55,775 bases of DNA from an uncultured Gammaproteobacteria bacterium (lineage in GTDB: Bacteria; Patescibacteriota; Microgenomatia; Curtissbacterales; GWA2-41-24), in assembly GCA_964562855.1 (NCBI GenBank), contig CAZLVB010000004.1, forward strand, positions 1-55,775, given 5' to 3'. Below are positions 1 through 12,512 of this stretch, in pieces. The notes under the pieces were generated by a model. The model was not told the origin of the DNA, did no database searches, and saw only the letters and a list, made by a program, of their open reading frames with translations. The translations under genes and the position numbers were made by a program. The stretch's first letter is position 1; every line of letters begins with the position of its first letter.

Positions 1-31
1 ATTGCCGAAATCGCAACCCCGGTGCTAATAT
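1..31 (+). repeat. Repeat family F1, copy 1 (window starts inside it)
   Basis: ATTGCCGAAATCGCAACCCCGGTGCTAATAT. The same unit recurs in the same orientation at 732-762, 1510-1540 and 2044-2074. It reads as a TTGCCG-N18-TAATAT promoter-like unit. Confidence 0.8.
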
Positions 32-47
32 ATTTAGAAATACACAA

Positions 48-76
48 TTGACATTATGACAAATTTGTCATAAAAT
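48..76 (+). promoter_or_regulatory. TTGACA box plus perfect 16-nt palindrome, probable TA operator
   Basis: TTGACA at 48-53. ATGACAAATTTGTCAT at 56-71 is a perfect palindrome ending 6 nt before the ATG at 78. A TAAAAT box lies at 71-76, which is too close to the ATG for a normal leader. Confidence 0.45.
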
Positions 77-77
77 T

Positions 78-374
78 ATGGAGTTAATAGTTGATAAGCG
101 CGTACAAGCGATTGTAGATAATCTAAGTGAGTTAGAACAGGGAAGAATTTTAGGATATCTTGACCTATTTACAGAGAAGAAATTTAGTCTTCCGGCCAAA
201 TATCTAAAAAAGCTTGATAGTAATTTATGGGAGCTGAGGCCTGGGAATATTCGACTACTAATTGGAAAGACAAGTGTTGGAATGATAGTTGTGAACGTCT
301 TTAAGAAGAAAAGTCAAAAGACTCCGAAAAATGAATTAAATACTGCAAAGAAGCGGCTTATGGAGTACAAATGA
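78..374 (+). CDS. Type II toxin, RelE/HigB-like (phage Gp49-like)
   Basis: 98 aa. Contains LWELRPGNIRLLIG and FKKKSQKTP...AKKRL motifs typical of Gp49/HigB-like toxins. Has an ATGA overlap with the downstream HTH gene. Confidence 0.75.
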   Translation: MELIVDKRVQAIVDNLSELEQGRILGYLDLFTEKKFSLPAKYLKKLDSNLWELRPGNIRLLIGKTSVGMIVVNVFKKKSQKTPKNELNTAKKRLMEYK

Positions 375-670
375 TGAAGAAACCACCCTATATCACGCAC
401 GAACAATTTAGAAAAAGACTTCTCGCAAAACCAGGAGTCAGAAGGGCATATGAGGAGCTTCAGCCAGAATTTGCAATTGTCAGGGCAATTGTAGAGGCTC
501 GGGCTAAAAAAAATATTTCGCAAGAGGAATTGGCCAAAAGAATGGGGACAGGACAAGCGGTTATTTCCAGACTTGAAGGTGCAAATGCCAGCCCTTCGCT
601 TTCGCTAATAAAGAGACTGGCAAACGCCCTTAACCTCAAAGTAGAGCTACGGTTTACACCTAAAAATTAG
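371..670 (+). CDS. XRE-family HTH antitoxin (HigA-like)
   Basis: 99 aa. ISQEELAKRMGTGQAVISRLE is a helix-turn-helix. Toxin-first gene order and a 4-nt overlap with the toxin. Confidence 0.8.
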   Translation: MMKKPPYITHEQFRKRLLAKPGVRRAYEELQPEFAIVRAIVEARAKKNISQEELAKRMGTGQAVISRLEGANASPSLSLIKRLANALNLKVELRFTPKN

Positions 671-682
671 CTCACAAAAAAA

Positions 683-765
683 GTAAAACAAAAATTCTTC
701 TCGGCAGCCTAAGCAAAACCAAGCCGGAAAAATTGCCGAAATCCTTATCCCGGTGATATTATTTA
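683..765 (+). repeat. Extended F1 repeat (about 83 nt), copy 2, including a relic gene 3' end
   Basis: Near-identical to 1993-2076. Positions 683-715 translate as VKQKFFSAA-stop, the same C-terminus as the CDS at 1807-2022, but here it is non-coding. Confidence 0.85.
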
Positions 766-809
766 AATCCTGACTAAACCTGACTTACGAAATCATAAAA
801 AGCCTAACC

Positions 810-835
810 TTGACAAAAAGTAACTTATAAGTTAC
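810..835 (+). promoter_or_regulatory. TTGACA box plus perfect 16-nt palindrome, probable TA operator
   Basis: TTGACA at 810-815. GTAACTTATAAGTTAC at 820-835 is a perfect palindrome ending 3 nt before the ATG at 839. Same architecture as 48-76 with a different sequence. Confidence 0.45.
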
Positions 836-838
836 CAT

Positions 839-1153
839 ATGAGCAAGAATATATTTATGGATAAGAACGCCGAAAAGGAATTAAGAGCCTTCGGCGAAGA
901 GGTACAGCTAGAGTTTGAGGCATATTTTAAAATCTTAGAACTCGAGGGCAAACTTGGTTTTCCGCAAGCCAGGAAAATCACAAGAGATATATTTGAAATT
1001 AGAATCAAACTAAAAGGAGAATATCGAGGTTTTTATGCGTATATTGGCAAGCAAGATATTGTAATTTTGCATTTCTTTCGAAAAAAGACGCAGAAAACAC
1101 CACTTAAAGATTTAGACTTGGCTCAAAGGAGGTTAAGAATTTATGAATCGTAA
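839..1153 (+). CDS. Type II toxin, RelE/HigB-like (phage Gp49-like), paralog of 78-374
   Basis: 104 aa. Contains IFEIRIK...GEYRGFYAY...ILHFFRKKTQKTP...AQRRL, and overlaps the downstream HTH gene. Confidence 0.75.
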   Translation: MSKNIFMDKNAEKELRAFGEEVQLEFEAYFKILELEGKLGFPQARKITRDIFEIRIKLKGEYRGFYAYIGKQDIVILHFFRKKTQKTPLKDLDLAQRRLRIYES

Positions 1154-1448
1154 AATTAACCAGGCTGTCAAAAGAGGAGAACTTATTGCCTATGCTGAGC
1201 TTTTTGCAAAGTATCCCAAAAAACGCCAGCAAGAGATTCTGGAACGGGCAAGATACTTGAAAGCGGCAATGGAACTTAAAAAATTAAGAAAACTGCTCAA
1301 GATTTCCCAAAACGAGCTTGCCCGCAAAATGAAAGTAAAAAGAGAGTTCATCACCAGAATTGAAAGCGGAGAGCAAAATATAACTCTAGAAACTTTAAAT
1401 AGAATAGCCGAGGCAACAGGCAAAGAGTTCGAATTCCGTTTTAAATAA
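1143..1448 (+). CDS. XRE-family HTH antitoxin
   Basis: 101 aa. ISQNELARKMKVKREFITRIESGEQNITLETLNRIA is a helix-turn-helix. Confidence 0.8.
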   Translation: MNRKINQAVKRGELIAYAELFAKYPKKRQQEILERARYLKAAMELKKLRKLLKISQNELARKMKVKREFITRIESGEQNITLETLNRIAEATGKEFEFRFK

Positions 1449-1509
1449 TTGCTTTTCAATCCCCGAATTATCGACCCTGTTGGATAAATAGAAACACAAT
1501 TAAGCTCTG

Positions 1510-1540
1510 ATTGCCGAAATACTTATTGCGGTGATATTAT
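1510..1540 (+). repeat. Repeat family F1, copy 3
   Basis: ATTGCCGAAATACTTATTGCGGTGATATTAT, 18 nt upstream of the ATG at 1559. Confidence 0.8.
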
Positions 1541-1558
1541 TTTTCTAGTTCTAAAACT

Positions 1559-1810
1559 ATGAAAATTTTTTACACCAAACATGCCGAAGACAAACTTAAA
1601 AGAAGGGATATCAAAAGTTTTAAGATTACTAAAAAATTAATTGATGCGATATTATCAAAATCGCAGCATGAATCAAGAACAAAATACGGGGATTATTCTA
1701 TGTCGGAAAGCGTTGACGATAGGCATGATGTGAGAATAGTTTATGATATAATTGGCAAAGATTTGAAAGTTATAACTTTTCATATATCAAGGAAGGGGCG
1801 ATATAAATGA
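1559..1810 (+). CDS. Small putative toxin (DUF4258-like)
   Basis: 83 aa starting MKIFYTKHAEDKLKRRDI, typical of DUF4258-type proteins. Has an ATGA overlap with the DUF2283-like partner. Confidence 0.5.
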   Translation: MKIFYTKHAEDKLKRRDIKSFKITKKLIDAILSKSQHESRTKYGDYSMSESVDDRHDVRIVYDIIGKDLKVITFHISRKGRYK

Positions 1811-2022
1811 AGATCAAATATTACAAGAATGACGACATTTTGGTACTGAAATTTTCAAGTGAAGACGTTGATGACTCTTTCGAAATAGAAAATGCTATAC
1901 TGGAAGTTGATAGCAAAAATAATCCCGTAAACTTGGAGATTTTGCATGCTTCCAAGTTTTTTAACATAGCTTCAAAAGAATTGCCTCGCGAAGTTAAACA
2001 GAAATTCTTCTCAGCAGCCTAA
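1807..2022 (+). CDS. DUF2283-like small protein (putative antitoxin partner)
   Basis: 71 aa. Contains MKIKYYKNDDILVLKFS...LEIL, a DUF2283-like beta-rich pattern. Translationally coupled to 1559-1810. Confidence 0.55.
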   Translation: MKIKYYKNDDILVLKFSSEDVDDSFEIENAILEVDSKNNPVNLEILHASKFFNIASKELPREVKQKFFSAA

Positions 2023-2076
2023 GCAAAACCAAGCCGGAAAAAGATTGCCGAAATCCTTATCCCGGTGCTATTATTC
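1993..2076 (+). repeat. Extended F1 repeat, copy 4
   Basis: Matches 683-765 with a few substitutions and a 2-nt indel. Its first 30 nt are the real 3' end of CDS 1807-2022. Confidence 0.85.
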
Positions 2077-2127
2077 GAGCGAAAGCGAGAATAACATCGA
2101 CGAAGTTGTTATTATTAAGCCCATAAA

Positions 2128-2829
2128 ATGACTGCAAGAGACGATATTTTGTCATACCGTGAAATGTGTGATGCAGAAAATGTGCAAACGTTACAACGAG
2201 GAATGAACTTTCGATTAGATCCTCGATATTCTGTAATTCTTATGTCTCAAAGAACAAATGCTCCTTATAAAGACAAGATTTATGAAGATGGAACTACAAT
2301 TGAATACGAAGGACATGACGTGCCCAAAAAAGGCTACATGCATAATCCTAAACAAGAGGATCAACCCGAAACGCTTCCTTCTGGAAAGTTAACCCAGAAC
2401 GGGTTATTTGTTAAGACTATAAATGAATTTAAAAGTGGAGAAAGAGAGGCGGAGCTGGTAAAAGTTTATGAAAAAATTTTGCCAGGCGTCTGGTCGCTAA
2501 AAGGAATTTTTGAACTAGTTAATTACAAAGTGGTGAATGATGGCAGAAGAAATGTTTTTAGATACATTTTGAAACTAACGAATGTCGAAACTTTAGAGGG
2601 AAAAAAGCCAGAGAATATTGAAATTGCTCACAATAGAATAATTCCTTCCGAAGTAAAAAAAGAGGTCTGGAAAAGAGATAATGGTCAATGTGTGCTATGT
2701 AATTCAAAACAAAACCTGCACTTTGACCACGACCTTCCATTTTCAAAAGGAGGAACAAGCTTGACGGTAAAAAATGTAAGATTGTTATGCATGAAACATA
2801 ATTTGCAAAAATCGGCAAAAATTGAATAG
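2128..2829 (+). CDS. HNH endonuclease with N-terminal SRA/YDG-like domain (candidate modification-dependent nuclease)
   Basis: 233 aa. The C-terminus CVLCNSKQNLHFDHDLPFSKGG...NVRLLCMKHNLQK is an HNH motif. The N-terminus YSVILMSQ..APYKDKIYEDGTTIEYEGHD...DQ...N resembles an SRA-fold layout. Confidence 0.6.
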   Translation: MTARDDILSYREMCDAENVQTLQRGMNFRLDPRYSVILMSQRTNAPYKDKIYEDGTTIEYEGHDVPKKGYMHNPKQEDQPETLPSGKLTQNGLFVKTINEFKSGEREAELVKVYEKILPGVWSLKGIFELVNYKVVNDGRRNVFRYILKLTNVETLEGKKPENIEIAHNRIIPSEVKKEVWKRDNGQCVLCNSKQNLHFDHDLPFSKGGTSLTVKNVRLLCMKHNLQKSAKIE

Positions 2830-3183
2830 ATGAATATAAAAAAACTTCAAAAGCGAGTAGTTGATTTTAGAAATAAGCGGGGTTGGAAACAATTTCACAG
2901 ACCAAAAGATATGGCCCTTTCTTTAACCTTGGAAGCAGCGGAGGTTTTGGAACATTTCCAGTGGAAAGACGAAAAAGAAATTGAACAATATCTCGAAAAA
3001 GCAAAGAATAAAAAGGCACTAGCAGAAGAAATTTGCGACGTTCTGTTTTGGATTTTAACGATGGCCCACGATTTAAAAATCGATATCCCAAAATCATTTG
3101 AGCAAAAGATGAAAAAGAACGAGAGACGTTATCCAGTTGCCAAGGTCAAAGGCAAAAGCAAAAAATATAATCAGTACTACTAG
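2830..3183 (+). CDS. MazG-like all-alpha nucleotide pyrophosphohydrolase (dCTPase-like)
   Basis: 117 aa. Contains RGWKQFH.PKD.ALSLTLEAAEVLEHFQWK and EEICDVLFWIL. Its ATG immediately follows the HNH stop codon. Confidence 0.75.
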   Translation: MNIKKLQKRVVDFRNKRGWKQFHRPKDMALSLTLEAAEVLEHFQWKDEKEIEQYLEKAKNKKALAEEICDVLFWILTMAHDLKIDIPKSFEQKMKKNERRYPVAKVKGKSKKYNQYY

Positions 3184-3200
3184 AATAAAATAAGAAAGTC

Positions 3201-3935
3201 ATGAAAAAATCCCTTACCATTCATGATTTACCAAAGGAAGAGCGACCGCGTGAAAGGTTAGAGAAATATGGAGTAGAAAATCTGTCAGCTCAAGAATTGA
3301 TAGCTTTGATTTTGGGACGAGGTGTAAGAGGTGAATCAGTTATGATTACTGCGCAAAAACTACTTTCAAAATTCGGTTTACAAGGACTTAAGGAAGCCTC
3401 GCTTGAAGATTTAAAAGAAATTAAAGGCTTAGGCAATGCAAAGTCCGCACAAATAACTGCATGTGTCGAGATAGCAAGACGTATCAACGACTATGAACTT
3501 TCGCAAGCAACTAAAGTCCAAGGTATGAAGGCTCTTTCTCCGCAAGATGTATATATGCTGTTGAAACCAAAAATTAAGAATTTGACCAAAGAGCACTTTT
3601 TAACACTTTCATTTGATATCCGAAATCATCTTTTGGGTGTAGACACAATTTCAATTGGTACCCTTACGGATAATCTGGTCCATCCACGCGAAACTTTTGA
3701 AGCGGCTATTCGGCGACACGCAGCCAAAATTATAATAGCTCACAATCACCCTTCCGGAGACTCATCCCCCAGTAGCGAAGATGATCAGGTTACAAAGCAG
3801 ATCATTGAAGCGGGGCAAATTTTGAGTATTATGGTAATTGATCATGTCATCCTTTCAAGAAATGGATACTACAGCTATGCAAGTGCGAAACCTAACTTGT
3901 TTAAAAAAATGAGTGATATAAAACTCTCGCGATAA
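3201..3935 (+). CDS. radC: RadC-like JAB/MPN domain protein
   Basis: 244 aa. N-terminal HhH region (ELIALILGRG...LKEIKGLGNAKSAQI) and the JAMM motif HNHPSGDSSPSSED. Confidence 0.85.
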   Translation: MKKSLTIHDLPKEERPRERLEKYGVENLSAQELIALILGRGVRGESVMITAQKLLSKFGLQGLKEASLEDLKEIKGLGNAKSAQITACVEIARRINDYELSQATKVQGMKALSPQDVYMLLKPKIKNLTKEHFLTLSFDIRNHLLGVDTISIGTLTDNLVHPRETFEAAIRRHAAKIIIAHNHPSGDSSPSSEDDQVTKQIIEAGQILSIMVIDHVILSRNGYYSYASAKPNLFKKMSDIKLSR

Positions 3936-3948
3936 AATATATCAATTC

Positions 3949-5076
3949 ATGGATTTCAATTCAGTACTAAAAACAAAAAGTTTTTTAAGATTTACAGGCC
4001 CCCCGGAACATTGGTTAACAGCTGTGAAATTTATGACTTGGGGACTTGAAGCAGATTTAAGAGATCGATGGTTAAGGATTAGACCAGGAGATATATTTTT
4101 TGTTCATAGCACTCAAAATTCGGCTTTTAAAAATGCGAAATCAGGTATTATAGGACTGGGTGTCGTGGGACCAGGTTTTTCTGAAAAAAAGAATCCCTTA
4201 TGGTTTTATGAAACAACAAAAAATATTAACCGATGGCCGCTCCTTGTACCCCTATCAGAAGTTTACCTCTTTAGCGAGTTGCCATCCCCGAACACCTGGG
4301 AAAATCCTTCACAGCATAATATTGCCGGAACGGAAAGATTGATAGATAAGTTACTTGCAAATTATATTCCCCTAAGGCAAATTCCGGGATTTCCTCAAAT
4401 GGGTAGTTTTTCATCAGTTAAGCCCGAAGTCGCCAACAGAATACTTTTTGATAAAAAACCACTTTATCTCTATTCTGGTTATGAAGAATTGGGCGTAGCG
4501 CCTGGAAAGCCAGTGGTACAAATAAAAACTGAAGACGTAGATAGACAATTAGACGAAATAAAAAGTGCAACTGAAGCTTTGCGCTATGCAGATACTTTAA
4601 AGATTTTTGATAGTGTTAGGGCACGAATCATCAAGGAACCCACATCTCAATACACTAGGGATAATGAAATTCTTGACCGTGCCAATTCAGTTCACGCTTC
4701 AATTTTACAACAGCTTATCGATCTATTTCGGAAACATGGGTATGATACAAGGTCTAGTCGTACTGTTGATCTTTTCGCACACAACGAAAAGAATGCGTTT
4801 CTCTTTGAAGTTAAAAGTACAGAAAGTAGAAACTTTCGTACTCAAGCAAGAAAAGGTATTGCCCAACTTTTTGAATACGAATATTTTGATGTCCAGAAAT
4901 TTTCGCAAGATAATAATTTAACATTTGAAGATAAGTATAAGTTAATTATTCCGTCGCAAACCCCTAAGGATACCCGTTATGTGGACTTTATTAATAGTTT
5001 GAAGATAGGTGTTGCGCTGGTGAGCGAGAATAGTCTGAAGCCAGTTGGAGAAGACCTAGGCTTTTCTAAAATTTAA
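3949..5076 (+). CDS. EVE/PUA-like domain fused to a PD-(D/E)xK nuclease-like domain
   Basis: 375 aa. The N-terminus HWLTAVKFMTWGL...IRPGDIFFVHST...GIIGLGVV is EVE-like. The C-terminus VDLFAH...FLFEVKS...QLFEY is a D..ExK nuclease motif. Confidence 0.55.
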   Translation: MDFNSVLKTKSFLRFTGPPEHWLTAVKFMTWGLEADLRDRWLRIRPGDIFFVHSTQNSAFKNAKSGIIGLGVVGPGFSEKKNPLWFYETTKNINRWPLLVPLSEVYLFSELPSPNTWENPSQHNIAGTERLIDKLLANYIPLRQIPGFPQMGSFSSVKPEVANRILFDKKPLYLYSGYEELGVAPGKPVVQIKTEDVDRQLDEIKSATEALRYADTLKIFDSVRARIIKEPTSQYTRDNEILDRANSVHASILQQLIDLFRKHGYDTRSSRTVDLFAHNEKNAFLFEVKSTESRNFRTQARKGIAQLFEYEYFDVQKFSQDNNLTFEDKYKLIIPSQTPKDTRYVDFINSLKIGVALVSENSLKPVGEDLGFSKI

Positions 5077-5141
5077 TTTTTGCGAATGAAAAGGGAATTG
5101 GAAAGATAAACCATCCATTTTATAAACTCTACTGCCTTACT

Positions 5142-5165
5142 CCGGAAGAAATTAAAATTGTGGAG
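5142..5165 (+). repeat. Repeat family F2, degenerate copy
   Basis: CCGGAAGAAATTAAAATTGTGGAGG, to be compared with CCCGGGGAAATTGCAATTGTGGAGG at 7130-7157. Confidence 0.55.
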
Positions 5166-5198
5166 GAAAAAAGTTACAAAAAGCTTTTAATATAAACA

Positions 5199-5492
5199 TT
5201 ACGGGTTAGTATACCCACTTTTTTTGTAGGAATATACTATTCTGCTTGTGTAATCTCCTCCACCGCTTCCGCCATCACAACCTAGACCAAGAAAGTATTT
5301 TTCAATATCACGGGCTGCTTGATTTGAATCAGCTTCACGAAAAATCCAGCCTTGGCCATTTTCATAAACGCCATGATCAATAAATAACCGTTGTTTGACA
5401 TCTGATGTTATACCAACGTACCAATCCCTATATTGGCCGCCGTTTTTAGCCATGTAATTTGAAATATCATTAATGATTAGCTGCATGCCCAT
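5199..5492 (-). CDS. Small GIY-YIG-like protein
   Basis: 97 aa. WYVGITSDVKQRLFIDHGV resembles the GIY-YIG core (YVGxT...R...H). The C-terminus is Gly-rich. Confidence 0.4.
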   Translation of the reverse strand: MGMQLIINDISNYMAKNGGQYRDWYVGITSDVKQRLFIDHGVYENGQGWIFREADSNQAARDIEKYFLGLGCDGGSGGGDYTSRIVYSYKKSGYTNP

Positions 5493-5578
5493 TATTCAAC
5501 CTCCTTCCCAGTAAATTCTAGAACAGATTTAACTAAAAATCAAAGAAAACGCAATAGTACAGTACTTTTTTATCAGGC

Positions 5579-5606
5579 TTGACAAAGAGAAAGTTTAGAA
5601 TATAAT
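5579..5606 (+). promoter_or_regulatory. Sigma70-like promoter
   Basis: TTGACA (5579-5584), a 16-nt spacer, then TATAAT (5601-5606), 9 nt upstream of the ATG at 5616. Confidence 0.55.
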
Positions 5607-5615
5607 AAATGTAAT

Positions 5616-6059
5616 ATGTCAAGCGAATATAAACTTACAAAATTTACAAGTGTGGGCTCAAGGGTTGGAAATTACTTTATCAGCTTCAACAAATCTGGTC
5701 TGATATTGTCTAGCGGCTTTTATTTGCGCGAGGGGATTAAAAACTTCTCAAGAGTGGTTTTGTACTTTGATAAAAATAAAAAAGCTATTGCAATACAATT
5801 TAGTAAAGATAATAACGTTGAAGGTGGTTTTACGCTGGTCCACAGCAACAATAGAACTACTGGAAGCGTTTCCGCACGTTCATTTATTCTTACCCACGGC
5901 CTAAATGACCCCAAATACTTTGGAAGATTTGTTCCCCAAAAAATCAATTATGAAGAAGCTGGTGAGTTATTCGTTATTGATTTGCCAACCGGGGATCAAG
6001 TTAAAAATGAAGCTACCCCAAGTGCGGATGCGTCGATTGAAGAGGCTCTACCTCAATAA
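5616..6059 (+). CDS. Hypothetical protein
   Basis: 147-aa ORF with a consensus promoter just upstream. No family recognised. Confidence 0.5.
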   Translation: MSSEYKLTKFTSVGSRVGNYFISFNKSGLILSSGFYLREGIKNFSRVVLYFDKNKKAIAIQFSKDNNVEGGFTLVHSNNRTTGSVSARSFILTHGLNDPKYFGRFVPQKINYEEAGELFVIDLPTGDQVKNEATPSADASIEEALPQ

Positions 6060-6180
6060 TATCGGTAGCTAACGCAGGCAAAAGCCACGCCTAAAAACTG
6101 CGCTTGGGGTGGTCTCTAATTGAATATTACCAAAATTAATGAATGTTGGACAGTACCTGGGAAGGGTGGTGAAAGTTAAT

Positions 6181-6318
6181 ATGCAACATTCGAAGAGCTA
6201 TATTCAATCAGAAGACGCCAGAGAAGCCATTGGCTACTTATATAATGAAATTGAAGCCCTCGAACATAAAATAAGAGATCTTGAATACGAAATCGATAAA
6301 TTAAAATCTAGTCAATAA
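6181..6318 (+). CDS. Possible small coiled-coil protein (below ORF-track cutoff)
   Basis: 45 codons: MQHSKSYIQSEDAREAIGYLYNEIEALEHKIRDLEYEIDKLKSSQ. Heptad-like. An in-frame GTG at 6169 is an alternative start. Confidence 0.3.
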   Translation: MQHSKSYIQSEDAREAIGYLYNEIEALEHKIRDLEYEIDKLKSSQ

Positions 6319-6380
6319 AGTTACGATAACGATCGCATTTGACTTCCGAGAGTTACGTCTTTTATATTAACTAATCTAAA

Positions 6381-7067
6381 ATGAACAACGGTCTTTTTAA
6401 ATTAAGTCCTTCCGACTTTAGGTATTTATGGGAGGATTGCAAACATTGTTTTTACCTAAAAGTAAACAAAGGGATTAACCAGCCAAGTATTGGAATCCCC
6501 GGTGTTTTTATGAAGATGAATTCCCTTTTGCAGAAGGATATTGAGGGAGTGAATTTGAAAGATATTAATCCAAATTTGCCATCTGGGGTGATCGAAACGA
6601 AAGAAGGTTACTTAAAATCCAAACCTATACCTCCGGCAAACAATAGTTATATAAGCGGACGCTTTGATATTATTTCAAAACTTGATGATGGCAGTTATGC
6701 AATTATTGATTTCAAAATATCCGATCCGGTAGAAGAAAAAGTTCAAAAATTCACACACCAGCTTCATGCCTATAAATTTGCAATAGAGAATCCCTTGGAA
6801 GGTGAGGGAAGAAATGTAAGCAAGATGGGTTTGGTGATAGTTTCTCCCGAACAAATTGGCTTCAAAAATGGGTTTGTTTATTTTAAATCTACGCCTCAAT
6901 GGTTTGAAATAAAAGAAGACATGGACGGTTTTTTAAATTTTATTGGGGGTGTGAATGAGGTTTTAAACGGTAAACCGCCGCAACCTACACCCGAATGTAA
7001 ATGGTGCATATATCGTACATATTTTGAACCAAAGGAGGCTATTGATTCAGACGAACTCCCGTTTTAA
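6381..7067 (+). CDS. PD-(D/E)xK nuclease, Cas4/RecB-like with Cys cluster
   Basis: 228 aa. CKHC lies near the N-terminus and CKWC near the C-terminus. D...IIDFK is a nuclease motif, and a QLHAYKF (QxxxY) motif is present. Confidence 0.65.
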   Translation: MNNGLFKLSPSDFRYLWEDCKHCFYLKVNKGINQPSIGIPGVFMKMNSLLQKDIEGVNLKDINPNLPSGVIETKEGYLKSKPIPPANNSYISGRFDIISKLDDGSYAIIDFKISDPVEEKVQKFTHQLHAYKFAIENPLEGEGRNVSKMGLVIVSPEQIGFKNGFVYFKSTPQWFEIKEDMDGFLNFIGGVNEVLNGKPPQPTPECKWCIYRTYFEPKEAIDSDELPF

Positions 7068-7129
7068 TTTAAAAAACACTAGCCACCTTCAATGTGAACT
7101 GTGTTGACACCAAGCCTAATTTGGTCACA

Positions 7130-7157
7130 CGTCCCGGGGAAATTGCAATTGTGGAGG
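7130..7157 (+). repeat. Repeat family F2
   Basis: CGTCCCGGGGAAATTGCAATTGTGGAGG. Related copies lie at 7798-7833 and 9222-9259. Confidence 0.8.
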
Positions 7158-7211
7158 GGCGGAATATAATTTAAGAATTAAACTTTATTATATTTTCTTT
7201 TTGAAGTCTCC

Positions 7212-7556
7212 TTAGAATGACGGCGTCAGAAACTCTAAAAATTTCCGGCAGATCTTGAATAAATGGAGCCAATACTTCGGGAGGCTCCATGGAAGGAATT
7301 CTCCCGAGCCGTTTTTCTTCACTAATTTTCTAAAGTCTTTAAAATTAACAGTGATCACAAAACAATTTTTCTCGGTCGCCTTTTGGTAAATATCTTTGTC
7401 TTCTGCTTGTCTGGATAGCCCAAAATCATATACACAATGATAAATTTTTGCGCGCTTCGTAAGTTTTGGAAAAAACTCTAACTTTGCGAATGCCGAATCA
7501 AGTACGAGCCGAAACTTGCGTTTCTTTTTAAGTTTTTTAAGGGATCTTTTAGGCAA
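7212..7556 (-). CDS. DUF5615/PIN-like putative toxin, possibly frameshifted in its 3' third
   Basis: 114 aa with a TTG start overlapping the upstream DUF433 reading frame. Contains ...DKDIYQKATEKNCFVITVNFKDF. After ...NGSG, an alternative frame (IPSMEPPEVLAPFIQDLPEIF...) looks more family-like. Confidence 0.45.
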   Translation of the reverse strand: MPKRSLKKLKKKRKFRLVLDSAFAKLEFFPKLTKRAKIYHCVYDFGLSRQAEDKDIYQKATEKNCFVITVNFKDFRKLVKKNGSGEFLPWSLPKYWLHLFKICRKFLEFLTPSF

Positions 7557-7753
7557 CTTTTGTCGAGTAGTAGCTGTAAATTTCCTGCAGATCTTTTTTC
7601 GTTAACTTAAGATATGGATATTCTTTTTTAAAGTCTTTTATTTTATAACCTTGAATGTGCAGAGCCACCACACGAGCAACCGGAATTCTCGTGCCTCTCA
7701 AAACGGGTTGCCCCCCCCAAAACTTTTGGATTAGTTTGAATTATGTCTGGCAT
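7549..7753 (-). pseudogene. DUF433-like antitoxin gene interrupted by a frameshift in a G8/C8 homopolymer
   Basis: The minus strand reads MPDIIQTNPKVLGG, then a run of 8 G (plus-strand C8 at 7711-7718). With 7 G the frame continues QPVLRGTRIPVARVV...YPYLKLTKKDLQEIYSYY, giving a 67-aa DUF433 pattern. Confidence 0.65.
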
Positions 7754-7797
7754 AAATACATTATACACATTTCGGTCAATACGGCCTCGCCTCAAAA

Positions 7798-7833
7798 GGA
7801 CGCCAAACGTCCCGGGGAAATTGCAGTTGTGGA
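7798..7833 (+). repeat. Repeat family F2
   Basis: GGACGCCAAACGTCCCGGGGAAATTGCAGTTGTGGA, which aligns with 9222-9259. Confidence 0.8.
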
Positions 7834-7840
7834 AAAGAAA

Positions 7841-8074
7841 TTAAATAGAGGCGAATCCTCTTACGTGTAGAATCTCATCTGTCGCCATTGACCGTACATC
7901 TGAAGTTTTAAGAGTTATCACAGCAACCGTTTTACCAGCTGTAATAAACTCTACTTCTACTGCCCGGCCCTCGTTATAGACGTGCACAATTGTTCCAATG
8001 TCGCCTTTCTTGAGTCCGTGCTTCTTGAAATCTTTTGTTAACACAACAGTATCTAATTCATTCATAATGTCCAT
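7841..8074 (-). CDS. DUF4926-like small protein
   Basis: 77 aa. VVLTKDFKKHGLKKGDIGTIVHVYNEGRAVEVEF is the characteristic DUF4926 pattern. Confidence 0.6.
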   Translation of the reverse strand: MDIMNELDTVVLTKDFKKHGLKKGDIGTIVHVYNEGRAVEVEFITAGKTVAVITLKTSDVRSMATDEILHVRGFASI

Positions 8075-8075
8075 A

Positions 8076-8438
8076 TTATACAGGATAAACAGTGATAAAT
8101 CGAGGATTTTTTTGACCTTTTTCTATAATCCAAATTGTTCTGACATGAATAGTTTTTCCGTGAGGTGCATTAATGTTTCCATCAAGAACGTATTTTGTTC
8201 CATATTGTGAAGTTTGTAGATCAATAACATCTTCTGATTCAGCAATCTTCTGTAACTCCTTTTCAAATATTGAGACATTAACCTCAACTAACCCAAACTT
8301 GCGAAAGATTTTTGCTTTAAACTTACCTGTGGAATGTGTTTCTGAAAGAATATAATCGGTTAACTTTTTGCGCTGTATGATGGCTTTTTTACCATTCGGA
8401 AGCTTCATTCGATTGATTATAGCATTGCTCCAAACCAT
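8076..8438 (-). CDS. DUF6883-like protein, upstream partner of DUF4926
   Basis: 120 aa. Contains KLTDYILSETHSTGKFKAKIFRKFG. There is a 1-nt gap to the downstream gene. Confidence 0.5.
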   Translation of the reverse strand: MVWSNAIINRMKLPNGKKAIIQRKKLTDYILSETHSTGKFKAKIFRKFGLVEVNVSIFEKELQKIAESEDVIDLQTSQYGTKYVLDGNINAPHGKTIHVRTIWIIEKGQKNPRFITVYPV

Positions 8439-8500
8439 AGATATTCAAAACCCCAACAAGAACGGTCCTCAACTAGCCTGCGACAACGGATTCGGCAAGC

Positions 8501-8553
8501 CTTCGACCTCGAGCTCAGATCTTCGATTCCGAGATCACTCAGATTCGAGGAAC
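8501..8553. repeat. GC-rich palindromic element, intergenic copy
   Basis: CTTCGACCTCGAGCTCAGATCTTCGATTCCGAGATCACTCAGATTCGAGGAAC matches the reverse complement of 36511-36560 (inside miaB) at roughly 46 of 50 positions. Confidence 0.85.
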
Positions 8554-8621
8554 CGAATCGGCTCACCGCAAGCACTGCCAAAATTGCCACTTTCTTTCAA
8601 AAAGTTCTAATTTTAAATATG

Positions 8622-9098
8622 CTAATTAACTACAAGGATGGCGAAGTTAAGGAGAGCAGCAAAGGTTACCCAAAGAATGTAGGGGATTAGAATAATGCCG
8701 GCAGGTTTTGATATCTTGTAAAAAGCATAAATTGTTGCGGCGATTGCCAGCCAGAGAACGATAATCCCCGCAAATGCCAATGAGGGTGATTTTAAGCCGA
8801 AGAATAAAAAGGACCATAAAACATTTAAAATCAGCTGCAGTGCAAAGATAAAAAGTGCAATTCGAACCACCTTTTTAATAACGCCTTTTTCCCAAATTAA
8901 AAAGGCAGAAACTCCCATCAAAAGATAAAGAAGTGTCCAGACCGGAGCAAAAATCCAGTTTGGCGGGTTAAAAGAAGGTTTAGTTAAAGTTGCGTACCAA
9001 GTCTCAATAGAAGAAGAAGTAAATATGGAACCTGCCGCACCCACCAGTTCAACAAGCACCACAAAAACCAAAACGTGGGCGGCCCTTTTTATCCCCAT
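8622..9098 (-). CDS. tspO: TspO/MBR family tryptophan-rich sensory protein
   Basis: 158 aa with five hydrophobic helices. Contains FNPPNWIFAPVWTLLYLLMG. Confidence 0.8.
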   Translation of the reverse strand: MGIKRAAHVLVFVVLVELVGAAGSIFTSSSIETWYATLTKPSFNPPNWIFAPVWTLLYLLMGVSAFLIWEKGVIKKVVRIALFIFALQLILNVLWSFLFFGLKSPSLAFAGIIVLWLAIAATIYAFYKISKPAGIILIPYILWVTFAALLNFAILVVN

Positions 9099-9150
9099 GC
9101 TTTAATAATAAATTACTCCCCAACCATTCTCAAAGTCTTCATTCTCCAAA

Positions 9151-9201
9151 CCTGCCTGCCCATTCGGGTCTGAGCCTCAGGGTCGAAGACCGGCAGGCAG
9201 G
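9151..9201. repeat. Split CCTGCCTGCC / GGCAGGCAGG inverted repeat with nested hairpin
   Basis: The arms at 9151-9160 and 9192-9201 are perfect complements. The 31-nt loop contains CTGAGCCTCAG. The same arms occur fused at 15268-15289 and 37992-38009. Confidence 0.75.
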
Positions 9202-9221
9202 GGCGGGCAGGCACCACAGGA

Positions 9222-9259
9222 GGACGCCAAGCGCCCCGGGGAAATTGTAATTGTGGAGG
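9222..9259 (+). repeat. Repeat family F2
   Basis: GGACGCCAAGCGCCCCGGGGAAATTGTAATTGTGGAGG. Confidence 0.8.
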
Positions 9260-9308
9260 GGGAAGATTCATTCTTTTTAGATTAGCAAACGCTTGGTATA
9301 ATAACGTC

Positions 9309-9542
9309 ATGACCAATAAATTGGATTACATTATTAAATTAACTTATGACAAAGAATATAAAGGGTACGTTGCGGACGTAGTGAATTTGTATGGCTGTAT
9401 GAGTCAGGGTAAAACCAAAAAAGAAGCGATCGCAAACGCGAAAAAAGCCATTAACGCATATATTGAAGCTACTACCAAAAAAGCTGAAAAAGGCGCCGAA
9501 TTTGCCAAAGCTTCGGTTAGTTCTCGAGTCGCGCTTAATTAA
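9309..9542 (+). CDS. hicB: HicB-like antitoxin
   Basis: 77 aa. Contains YKGYVADVVNLYGCMSQGKTKKEAIANAKKAINAYIE (UPF0150/HicB fold pattern). Confidence 0.7.
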   Translation: MTNKLDYIIKLTYDKEYKGYVADVVNLYGCMSQGKTKKEAIANAKKAINAYIEATTKKAEKGAEFAKASVSSRVALN

Positions 9543-9545
9543 CAA

Positions 9546-9767
9546 ATGGGCAGATTTGCCAATATTTCCGGTAGATCTGCAGTTAAAAGCCTTATAAAGT
9601 TTGGATATAGTCATACTCACACTTCCGGTGATCATGCAATTCTACAAAAAGAAGGGGCGCCTACTCTTTCTATTCCCCTGCATAGAGAAGTAGCCCCAAA
9701 TTTGTTGAAAGCGCAGATAAAAAGAGCGGGAATTAGTCAAGACGATTTTTTGAAGAAAGTAAAATAA
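9546..9767 (+). CDS. hicA: HicA-like mRNA interferase toxin
   Basis: 73 aa. Contains LIKFGYSHTHTSGDHAILQKEG...LSIPLHREVAPNLLKAQIKRAGIS. Confidence 0.75.
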   Translation: MGRFANISGRSAVKSLIKFGYSHTHTSGDHAILQKEGAPTLSIPLHREVAPNLLKAQIKRAGISQDDFLKKVK

Positions 9768-10064
9768 GCCCATAAGGATACTCCTTAACGTCCGTCTACT
9801 AAGAAATCGCCTCTTGCAAAGGCGCTAGGAGTAGGATAAATCAGCCTCCAGCGAAGCTGGATCTGATATTTCCCTCTTGCAATGAAGCTAGCATTGGGAT
9901 ATAATCTGCGGCTAGTTTGTACACCTGCACAACACCTGTCAAACGCCCAAATTTAGCTTCGGCCTAAAGCTAAAACCAAAAAGAAAATTTTACGTCTGTG
10001 AATAAGTTCGTGAAAAGTGACATCTTGACAATTGTCCAAGTTTTATCGATAAAGGAGTAAGGCC

Positions 10065-10343
10065 ATGAAAATCGTATCATTAACCAGAGGGCAAAAACTA
10101 AAAAATCTAAAGAAAAAGCTTTCTGAGCTTGAAGAGGTTAAGTTAAAGCAAGCCCTAGCCAAGTATGGAGAAGCTTATCAGGAATCGGGCGCGGCCTGGC
10201 AGGAAAACGCGGCCTGGGAACTGGCAGACGAGGAAGTTTCCGTAATTCGAGCAATGATTGCAGAAATTAAAAGGGAAATTGTCACCCTGGAACATCCTCT
10301 TCCAACAGCTTCCGTTCCTCTGGCCATAAAAAAGGGGAAATAA
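10065..10343 (+). CDS. Hypothetical coiled-coil protein (weak GreA N-terminal-like)
   Basis: 92 aa. AAWQENAAWELADEEVSVIRAMIAEIKREI loosely resembles the GreA coiled coil. A GGAG lies 8 nt upstream of the ATG. Confidence 0.4.
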   Translation: MKIVSLTRGQKLKNLKKKLSELEEVKLKQALAKYGEAYQESGAAWQENAAWELADEEVSVIRAMIAEIKREIVTLEHPLPTASVPLAIKKGK

Positions 10344-10370
10344 TCCAAATTAGATTAGAATAGTAAGATA

Positions 10371-12512
10371 ATGGCAGAAAAAACATCTCGACTTTATCCT
10401 TTAGATCGCATAAGGAACATCGGCATCATTGCCCATATTGACGCGGGCAAAACAACTACCACCGAGAGAATTCTTTTTTACACAGGCAAAACTTACAAAC
10501 TGGGCAACATTGATGAGGGAACAACTGTTACCGATTGGATGGCCCAGGAAAAAGAGCGGGGAATTACCATCGTTTCCGCAGCCGTAACAACATTTTGGAA
10601 GCCTAAAGATGGCCCGTTTGCCGGAATCGATATGCGAATAAATATTATAGACACTCCCGGCCACGTCGATTTTACCGCCGAAGTCGAAAGGTCCCTGCGG
10701 GTGTTGGACGGAGGAGTTACAGTTCTTGACGCCGAAGAAGGCGTGCAGAGCCAATCAGAAACAGTCTGGCGCCAGGCTGACAAGTATAAAGTACCGCGCA
10801 TTTGTTTTGTCAACAAAATGGACAAAGTCGGTGCAGATTTTTACGAAACACTTTCGTCAATCCGTCAGAAACTGCAAGCACCGGCAGTCGCCTACAACTT
10901 GCCGATTGGCAAAGAAAATGATTTTAGCGGAGTCGTCGATTTGCTCACCCAAAAAGCCTATATTTGGGAAGAGGAGTCGGCCAAAAAAGGCGGTATGGAT
11001 TTTAAGGAGGTGCCGATACCGCAAAAAATGCACGCCGACGTCGAAAAATATCGAGCACAACTGGTTGAAAAAATCGCAGAAAATGATGAGGCTCTTGTCG
11101 AAAAATATCTTGCCGGAGACAAGATAACTGTTGAGGAACTGAAAAAAGCGCTAAGAAGCGCAGTCATCGCATATAAGATAGTGCCGGTACTTGCCGGCTC
11201 CAGTCTTCGAAATAAGGGAGTCCAGCTGCTTCTGGACGCGGTCGTTGAGTATTTACCATCTCCCATTGACATAGAAACTGTCGAAGGCACTAACCCTAAG
11301 ACAAATGAAAAGGAAATCCGCAAGCAGGTAATCGAAGCACCATTTGGCGGCCTTGCCTTTAAAGTCCAAATTGATCCGCATGTTGGTAAATTAAATTACG
11401 TAAGAATCTACTCAGGTACCCTCAAATCCGGTACTTCAATTTTAAATACTACTAAGAAGGAACGCGAGCGAATCGGCAGAATATTATTAATGCACGCCAA
11501 TACCAGAGAAGAAATTGCCGAAGCATACGCAGGCGAAATAGTGGCGGTGGTCGGCTTAAAAAGTACTACTACCGGTGACACGCTCTGCGATGAAAATTCG
11601 CCAATTATTTTAGAGTCTATCTCTTTTCCGGATCCGGTAATTTCTTTGGCAATCGAGCCGGCGACAAAAGCCGATCAGGAAAAACTCGGATACGCTCTTG
11701 GCAGACTCTCAGAAGAAGACCCTACTTTTAAGATTAAGGGTGATCCGGAAACCGGCCAGACAATTATTTCCGGCATGGGAGAATTGCACCTGGAAATTTT
11801 AGTTGACAGAATGAAGAGAGAATTTTCTGTGGCCGCCAATGTCGGCAGTCCGCAAGTTGCCTACAAAGAAACGATTAAAGAGATAGGCAAAGGTGAAGGT
11901 AAATATATCAGGCAGTCCGGAGGAAGAGGTCAGTATGGACACTGTTTTTTAAGGGTTGAGCCGCAACCCAGAGGCGAAGGTTATCAGTTCGTCTCCGAGA
12001 TTAAAGGAGGGACAATTCCCCAGGAATTCATTCCGTCTGTTGAAAAAGGCGTCCGCGAGAAAATGGAAACCGGAGTTCTTGCCGGTTACCCCATGGTTGA
12101 TATGAAAGTTGCCGTCTACGACGGTACTTATCATGATGTTGATTCTTCCGACATTGCTTTTAAAATTGCCGGCTCCCTTGCTCTAGAGGAGGCTGTCAAG
12201 AATGCCCAGCTTGCGCTTTTGGAACCTATCATGAAGGTTGAGGTGACCATTCCAGAAGAATTTATGGGCGATGTTATCGGCGATTTGTCTGCCAAGCGCG
12301 CCCAAATTCACAAAAGCGAACATCATGGAAATAGCACAATTATCACAGCCCTTGTGCCTTTAGCCGAAATGTCCGGTTATGTCACAACTTTAAGATCTAT
12401 GACCCAGGGCAGAGGCTCCGCCTACATGGAGCCGTCGCACTATGAGGAAGTTCCTCAAAACATCTCCGACAAAATAGTATCGAAGGTTCGAGGAGAGAAA
12501 TCAGAAAGTTAA
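10371..12512 (+). CDS. fusA: Elongation factor G
   Basis: 713 aa. Contains [26 protein letters not shown] and NKMD motifs. Full-length EF-G domain layout. Confidence 0.97.

Follow-up and report, generated by a model that had tools for sequence, protein, structure and literature searches.

Genes and features at the left end of the window

The window analysed here, a 55,775-nucleotide stretch of an uncultured Curtissbacteria genome (assembly GCA_964562855.1; 840 kb in 46 contigs, 94.9% complete), is the start of contig CAZLVB010000004.1, called C4 below. At its left end a 31-nt unit, F1, occurs four times in the same orientation, each time ahead of a small gene module, see Table 1. Modules 1 and 2 are Gp49/XRE pairs, module 3 is a DUF4258/DUF2283-like pair, and the fourth copy heads a four-gene block starting with an HNH-domain gene. 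A first-pass annotation had assigned these genes in the same way, and Pfam agrees, with the DUF4258-like gene below the curated cut-off.

The last 55 nt of contig C17 are identical to the first 55 nt of C4, and this 55-mer is found nowhere else. Two public contigs, L033 and L034, independently lead from rpsG directly to modules 1 and 2, so the join of C17 to C4 is real. The window does not start inside the first F1 copy, as had been assumed, but exactly on its first base, which is the contig end. Nor does the array continue further upstream: the end of C17 carries rpoB-rpoC-rpsL-rpsG and the array starts right after rpsG. On the other side, fusA begins at 10371, followed by tuf, rpsJ and ribosomal protein genes. 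The F1 units thus head the left end of a toxin-antitoxin/defence island of about 10.5 kb that is inserted in the str operon between rpsG and fusA. Native homology to a same-genus relative ends at window position -21 and resumes at 9935, which places F1 copy 1 within about 20 nt of the left junction of the island.

The rpsG-fusA gap was sized in 40 relatives by where S7 and EF-G lie, and it varies with kinship. In the nearest other families it measures 13-16 nt, and in most members of the same family 265-830 nt, with room for a conserved gene of about 90 aa (window 10065-10343). Three family members have a gap of about 2 kb and a different insert each: a patatin-like gene in one, an IS200-like Y1 transposase in another and a 504-aa protein in the third. 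In this Curtissbacteria family the gap is a hot spot of insertion. As in other integration hot spots and defence islands, the site is small in most relatives (0.3-0.8 kb) and large here (10.5 kb). It differs from them in its location, within the highly conserved str operon of a genome reduced to about 0.84 Mb, and in being partitioned by two private repeat families. F1 is absent from the gap in all 16 relatives whose gaps were read, which rules it out as an ancestral rpsG-fusA spacer element.

Table 1. Positions of the F1 and F2 repeats, promoter-like boxes and module genes in the window.
Feature	Position	Strand	Remarks
F1 copy 1	1..31	+	ATTGCCGAAATCGCAACCCCGGTGCTAATAT
TTGACA-N17-TAAAAT boxes, module 1	48..76	+	11/12 matches; enclose palindrome TGACAAATTTGTCA, likely operator
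Module 1 toxin-like gene, Gp49/HigB-type	78..374	+	98 aa; PF05973, E 1.6e-14
Module 1 XRE-type helix-turn-helix (HTH) antitoxin-like gene	371..670	+	99 aa; PF01381, E 1.3e-12; overlaps toxin gene
DUF2283 gene-tail relic and spacer, non-coding	681..731	+	5' extension of 83-nt unit; 94% identical to 1991-2042
F1 copy 2	732..762	+	TTGCCG-18-TATTAT, TG ahead of -10 box
TTGACA-N17-TACCAT boxes, module 2	810..838	+	enclose palindrome GTAACTTATAAGTTAC
Module 2 Gp49/HigB-type gene	839..1153	+	104 aa (98 aa from second ATG); PF05973, E 3.3e-20
Module 2 XRE-type HTH gene	1143..1448	+	101 aa; Pfam HTH_3
F1 copy 3	1510..1540	+	sole promoter-like site ahead of module 3; L033 strain variant differs here
Module 3 DUF4258-like (RelE-like) gene	1559..1810	+	83 aa; Pfam E 0.003, below cut-off
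Module 3 DUF2283 gene	1807..2022	+	71 aa; PF10049, E 2e-11
F1 copy 4	2044..2074	+	sole promoter-like site ahead of its module
HNH-domain gene	2128..2829	+	HNH E 0.0013, weak; first of four-gene block
F2 copies	5142-5165, 7133-7156, 7811-7834, 9235-9258	+	neighbouring genes on either strand

Structure of the F1 unit

The consensus of F1 is ATTGCCGAAAT-N7-SCGGTG-N-TAWTAT (31 nt). The spacer had been given as nine nucleotides, but the pattern written in that way matches nothing; the true spacer is 7 nt. When up to three mismatches are allowed, the corrected pattern has four matches in the window versus 0.00 expected from 100 dinucleotide shuffles, and these are the four plus-strand copies at the positions first reported. 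The distances from unit to ATG, 46, 76, 18 and 53 nt, likewise agree with the 18-76 nt described earlier.

Copies 2 and 4 differ at one of their 31 bases, and their similarity reaches 52 nt further upstream. This confirms the near-identical 83-nt units that the first-pass annotation had pointed out (681-763 versus 1991-2075; 93% over 85 columns, one gap). The 5' extension holds the last codons of the DUF2283 gene (VKQKFFSAA-stop), and in the other unit the same tail, at 681-715, is untranslated and lies 3' of the stop codon of an unrelated HTH gene. The duplication has thus set the DUF2283 gene tail behind the unrelated module 1.

Seven copies were aligned with 60-80 nt of flank: the four of the window, two from G009, a metagenome-assembled genome of another Curtissbacteria genus, and one strain variant. 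Conservation is confined to the unit, setting in abruptly at TTGCCG and stopping just as abruptly with the TAWTAT hexamer. The alignment is free of indels, and no copy deviates in TTGCCGAA, GGT or TA. The copies are 71-97% identical to one another while the flanks are unalignable. This is best explained by descent of all copies from one sequence and a spread that is independent of cargo. F1 is a discrete portable element, and its similarity does not reflect a shared ancestry of the flanks.

The cargo itself is unrelated. The Gp49 proteins of modules 1 and 2 are 32% identical and their XRE-type HTH proteins 36% identical over 47 residues, so the two modules are not recent duplicates; their F1 units are 81% identical. 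In modules 1-3 the paired small genes overlap by 4, 11 and 4 nt, the arrangement of type II toxin-antitoxin systems, as which they are predicted from their domains. The DUF4258-like protein of module 3 has 50 homologues at 52-71% identity, three of which the Joint Genome Institute calls RelE-type endonuclease. Modules 1 and 2 resemble HigB/HigA-type (Gp49/XRE) operons in their overlapping small genes and in the perfect palindrome amid promoter-like boxes; the additional upstream F1 that they share is outside the known operon plan. The -10 box of module 1 ends 1 nt ahead of the called ATG, an odd geometry for a promoter. With -10 boxes abutting the called ATGs, the TTGACA boxes of modules 1 and 2 may be mainly operators.

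Distribution of F1

Neither a regular expression nor an nhmmer profile finds a fifth copy in the 840-kb assembly (next match E 0.49). The whole-assembly search that the first-pass annotation had proposed thus shows that F1 is not a motif found ahead of housekeeping genes throughout the genome, so that the refutation foreseen there did not come about. Among 401 genomes of the class, only this genome (four copies) and G009 (two copies) contain more than one, and the scan otherwise returns seven single hits with 2-3 mismatches versus three control hits. With the 32 genomes of the family considered as well, G009 is the only other genome that exceeds a single weak hit. Across 185,579 species genomes F1 is found only in G009, in one isolated Planctomycetales hit and in hits that share one 30-mer. 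The latter are from Omnitrophota, with a similar hit in Lentisphaeria, and from its conservation we take this 30-mer to be probable coding sequence. A metagenome scan adds only two further copies of this 30-mer, and the scan of viral contigs gives no match. Taken together, the class, species-representative, metagenome and viral-contig scans rule out a wide distribution.

In G009 (Candidatus Curtissbacteria, record JACQIV010000028) the two copies lie 686 nt apart around a two-gene module, DUF5674 and a 92-aa protein, at a locus unrelated to rpsG. The first copy ends 6 nt ahead of the ATG of the DUF5674 gene; the second has lost the TG and has a poor -10 box (TATTTC). By blastn and tblastx, F1 is all that the island and the G009 locus have in common, at 87-93% identity, while identity between the two organisms is 71% for S7 and 82% for EF-G. 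The G009 organism co-occurs with the organism of the window in sample SRR12113383, which makes an exchange of F1 between the two plausible. F1 is private to two co-resident Curtissbacteria, sharply bounded and independent of its cargo. No account of anything like it, or of integrons from this group, was found in the literature.

F1 as a probable promoter

The first-pass annotation read F1 as a possible portable promoter, TTGCCG-N18-TATTAT, and the analysis supports this reading as a prediction from sequence. Conservation runs from one promoter hexamer to the other, the two being separated by 18 nt, and a TG stands one base ahead of the -10 box. TGn and TAnnnT are present in six of the seven copies, and TTG at 18 nt in all seven. 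Extended -10 (TGn) promoters of the sigma-70 type for leaderless or short-leader mRNAs are best described in Gram-positives and Actinobacteria.

The promoters of this genome appear to be of the same build. A -10 hexamer with at least 5/6 matches lies 6-9 nt ahead of the ATG at about 110 of 1028 candidate starts, and these positions form a peak that rises sharply above the background. TGn is present in 30% of these leaderless-type sites versus 6% by chance, TTG occurs 17-18 nt upstream, and TGATATAAT is recurrent. Leaderless mRNAs with extended -10 promoters thus appear to be common in this genome. Examples in the window are those of hicB at 9309 and of a gene at 5616.

A weight matrix was trained on the genome's own leaderless-type sites, which score 5.1-14.4 bits with a median of 10.1. 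The window copies of F1 reach 7.6-9.8 bits, compared with 8.9 for the first G009 copy and 14.0 for the strain variant, so that all but the decayed second G009 copy (six of seven) fall between 7.6 and 14.0 bits. The first G009 copy has leaderless geometry, as the unit ends 6 nt before the ATG.

A promoter suits F1 better than an integron site does, and we consider F1 best explained as a portable extended -10 promoter heading each module, with about even odds that this is right. A -35 box of the TTG type (TTGCCG) would be separated by 18 nt from a -10 box extended by TGn (TGnTAWTAT). The housekeeping sigma factor would guide RNA polymerase to this site, and transcription of the module behind it would begin some 7 nt past the unit. 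The units would form the 5' edges of four modules at the left end of an island that accumulated in the rpsG-fusA gap. As direct repeats, they would also be prone to RecA-type or Campbell-type recombination, by which modules could be gained, duplicated or lost. The likeness to known extended -10 promoters is in TGnTAWTAT, in the TTG 18 nt upstream and in the copy 6 nt before an ATG. F1 differs from them in that 31 nt, including the spacer, are conserved across unrelated cargo and two genera, and in its weak -35 box.

Several observations weigh against a promoter. About one site per kb and strand reaches 8.9 bits or more, so the score of F1 is weak evidence alone, and TTGCCG is a weak -35 box. 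The conservation of the spacer, and of CCGAA past the hexamer, goes beyond what sigma contacts alone explain. The near-consensus TTGACA boxes of modules 1 and 2 are stronger and lie between F1 and the ATG, and in the second G009 copy the -10 box has decayed. Finally, a second border repeat of the island, F2, is found on the same strand and yet in some copies precedes minus-strand genes; therefore not every border repeat in the island can be a promoter.

The genomes of bacteria of the Candidate Phyla Radiation (CPR) are tiny, and little is understood of how accessory defence genes are acquired and expressed in them. In its build the F1 family corresponds to the leaderless-type promoter of this organism; it is common to a co-resident genus and stands ahead of unrelated cargo. 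If F1 is a promoter, it would be a ready-made expression signal for uncultivated bacteria and an example of a promoter that moves between modules. The unit would be ordinary if it were merely a duplicated promoter, and notable if cassettes moved from unit to unit in a CPR genome.

Recombination around the F1 units

A comparison of strains, as proposed in the first-pass annotation, reveals a second haplotype. The public contig L033 (SRR12113383) is identical to the window over 2.2 kb up to 1478, has five differences between 1479 and 1529 and is unrelated after 1537. Its unit reads GTTGCCGAAATCCTTATTGTGGTGATATAAT and is followed by unrelated sequence; it keeps TTGCCG and TG, and its -10 box is a perfect TATAAT. 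In the same sample identity with the window resumes at 2522, within the HNH gene. The arrangement of the window is present in samples SRR12113384 and SRR12113424. The second haplotype thus keeps the unit ahead of other DNA, but it is not a clean unit-to-unit cassette swap, as the right edge of this sole variant lies inside the HNH gene. Such an edge favours homologous or illegitimate recombination over precise site-specific recombination.

Public contigs from three samples break within the HNH gene (2128-2829), at 2340 and 2522, and the N-terminal half of this nuclease seems to be polymorphic in the population.

The variant and the 83-nt duplication show that recombination reshuffles DNA around F1 units. 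That it uses F1 itself, we infer. Both are only indirect indications of a role of F1 in recombination, which had been proposed instead of, or together with, that of a promoter. The direct-repeat arrangement of F1 probably helps recombination to shuffle the modules.

The main rival explanation is that F1 is the core site of a site-specific recombination, in which circular modules with a single F1 integrate Campbell-style into a resident unit. Catalysis would be in trans, by an Xer-type recombinase or an unassembled enzyme, and any promoter activity would be secondary. A direct repeat is indeed found at every border of the two-gene modules (534-778 nt) and again around the 686-nt module of G009, and copy 1 is practically at the left junction of the island. 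Other Microgenomates flank a homologous DUF4258/DUF2283 module with a different direct repeat, in one array including the 3' end of tRNA-Leu, and many relatives carry repeats of the rpsG 3' end downstream of that gene. It is the tRNA-Leu array, with its footprint of tandem integration, that keeps this explanation alive. However, F1 has no inverted-repeat arms around a central spacer and no single-strand fold, and there is no dedicated recombinase inside the island or near the G009 copies. The 83-nt duplication overshoots F1 by 52 nt and the edge of the variant is within the HNH gene, both of which resemble homologous or illegitimate recombination more than a precise exchange. F1 also matches no tRNA or gene end. 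We therefore consider a site of this kind unlikely, though well worth keeping in view. If true, it would be a new way of building cassette arrays.

The island resembles the tandem accretion of integrative elements at the 3' ends of tRNAs or other genes in its border direct repeats and its place in a hot spot by a conserved gene. F1 differs from such systems in that it matches no tRNA or gene end, comes with no integrase and borders modules far smaller than typical elements. It can be speculated, with considerable doubt, that F1, and perhaps F2 too, is the recombination site of an undescribed cassette-accretion system of CPR bacteria that has no dedicated integrase. Such a system would hijack Xer or combine DNA uptake with short-homology recombination, and the promoter-bearing 5' site of each cassette would make it a functional counterpart of integrons, built in reverse.

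F1 could also be a functionless leftover of old tandem duplications whose similarity is held by gene conversion. Its copies are few and all within one 2-kb stretch, and copies 2 and 4 belong to a clearly recent duplication. Nevertheless, the unalignable flanks, the cargo at 32-36% identity versus units at 71-97%, the invariant blocks and the lack of indels speak against it, and so does an F1 that is 87-93% identical in a genus with such divergent S7 and EF-G. A leftover seems improbable to us.

A regulator-binding operator that co-controls the modules, or an insulator in which a G-U-rich minus-strand hairpin stops antisense transcription, has an equally slim chance of being correct. The two invariant blocks at fixed spacing would suit an operator, and on the minus strand a terminator scan picks out copies 2 and 4, with CCGGGATAAGGATTTCGG and then CAATTTTT. 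However, these two copies are the only ones with the T run, no minus-strand gene is found within 1-5000, no candidate regulator is common to both genomes and the folding is no better than that of shuffled sequences.

Comparison with integrons and other known elements

The first-pass annotation described the modules as an integron-like array. Integrons (IntI/attI/attC, including the sedentary chromosomal ones) are similar to F1 in several respects: modules of 0.5-0.8 kb in the same orientation, many of them toxin-antitoxin pairs, a short recurring site, and one site copy that overlaps the tail of a gene. There is, however, no integron integrase. The assembly contains two tyrosine recombinases, both of the Xer type, one on contig C13 and one at the junction of C15 and C46. 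Their best models are XerC/XerD, and on the integron-integrase model TIGR02249 they score 117 and 61 bits versus a cut-off of 265. No serine recombinase is found in the 94.9%-complete assembly. The recombinase expected upstream of the array is missing as well, the region there being occupied by rpoB-rpoC-rpsL-rpsG.

The sites are also different. attC sites are imperfect palindromes that fold as single-stranded hairpins, with a conserved structure and a variable sequence. F1 is instead conserved in sequence, and neither dyad symmetry nor inverted-repeat arms nor R/L boxes are found in it. Folded as single-stranded DNA, both strands of the units with their flanks have z-scores between -0.64 and +0.68 relative to shuffled sequences. 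The cassettes of integrons mostly lack promoters and are expressed from the common Pc promoter. The F1 modules, all in the same orientation, each have the promoter-like unit at their 5' end, and two also have their own TTGACA boxes with a palindrome, that is, their own promoter/operator boxes. With no intI, no attC-like fold and an array that starts right after rpsG, an integron is ruled out and the label should be dropped for the F1 array.

A link to REP elements can be dismissed too. Repetitive extragenic palindromic (REP) elements, which are mobilised by REP-associated tyrosine (RAYT) transposases of the Y1 type, are short palindromes in many copies, clustered at the Y1 transposase gene. 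F1 is not palindromic and is absent from the flanks of the four Y1 transposase genes of this 0.84-Mb genome; one F1-like match (17/19) near such a gene on contig C43 lies within the dprA coding sequence. These four genes are IS200-like or RAYT-like (about 215-225 aa) and are found on contigs C43, C15, C14 and C3. The genome also has 18 GGGTCSGACCC palindromes, several of which flank Y1 transposase genes.

An attachment core derived from a tRNA is excluded, as matches between F1 and the 25 tRNA genes with their flanks do not exceed 9 nt. F1 is also unrelated to the tail of rpsG, and no Rfam family is found in 1-10500 at E up to 1.

Other repeats in and around the island

The border repeat F2 (CCCGGGGAAATTGCAATTGTGGAG) has three close copies and a degenerate one at 5142-5165 (5/24 mismatches), and is found only in this island. 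F2 and the extended form of F1 have CCGGRRAAATTGC in common.

Elsewhere in the Microgenomates, homologues of the DUF4258-like/DUF2283 module (66-71% identity) stand in different surroundings, with the direct repeat AGAACTTTTTGGGTTCAA on either side. One repeat precedes the toxin gene and the other overlaps the stop codon of the antitoxin gene (L044 3937-6571 and 7036-7122; L048 1047-1599). In the public contig L044, four AGAACTTTTTGGGTTCAA copies on the same strand divide up the 2.6 kb from dnaB to tRNA-Leu(caa). Just ahead of two of them stand 12-13 nt, TGGCGCGGGTGGG, that equal the 3' end of this tRNA. Border repeats of a tRNA 3' end are the classical footprint of an integrase, and judged by its repeats the array looks like tandem integration at a tRNA gene, with no integrase visible.

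Just upstream of the window (C17 15670-15846), a 51-nt hairpin element is followed by a repeat of the final 27 nt of rpsG (KAFAHFRW-stop). The same repeat is present in L017, L020, L022, L025, L026 and L028, with two or three copies in some relatives. The copies differ almost only synonymously, and by eye the hairpin stem seems to covary from genome to genome (GGACC/GGTCC versus GCGC/GCGC). The repeats could be scars of elements that target the 3' end of rpsG, or a conserved regulatory RNA after rpsG. As an attachment scar of the island itself the duplicated tail was rejected, since both exact copies lie left of F1 and only 78 nt apart. It was also rejected as the island's boundary, since relatives that lack the island show the same architecture.

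At the other end, a strongly palindromic element of 47 nt, CCTGCCTGCC...GGCAGGCAGG, lies close to the right edge of the variable region in this genome and in the same-genus relative (window 9151-9196 versus L017 1795-1841; 98% identical, inverted). The gene at 10065-10343 (about 90 aa, …QKLKQLKxKLxELEEVKLKxALAKYGEAYQ…AAWELADEEVSVLRAM…) is found directly 5' of fusA in every family member examined.

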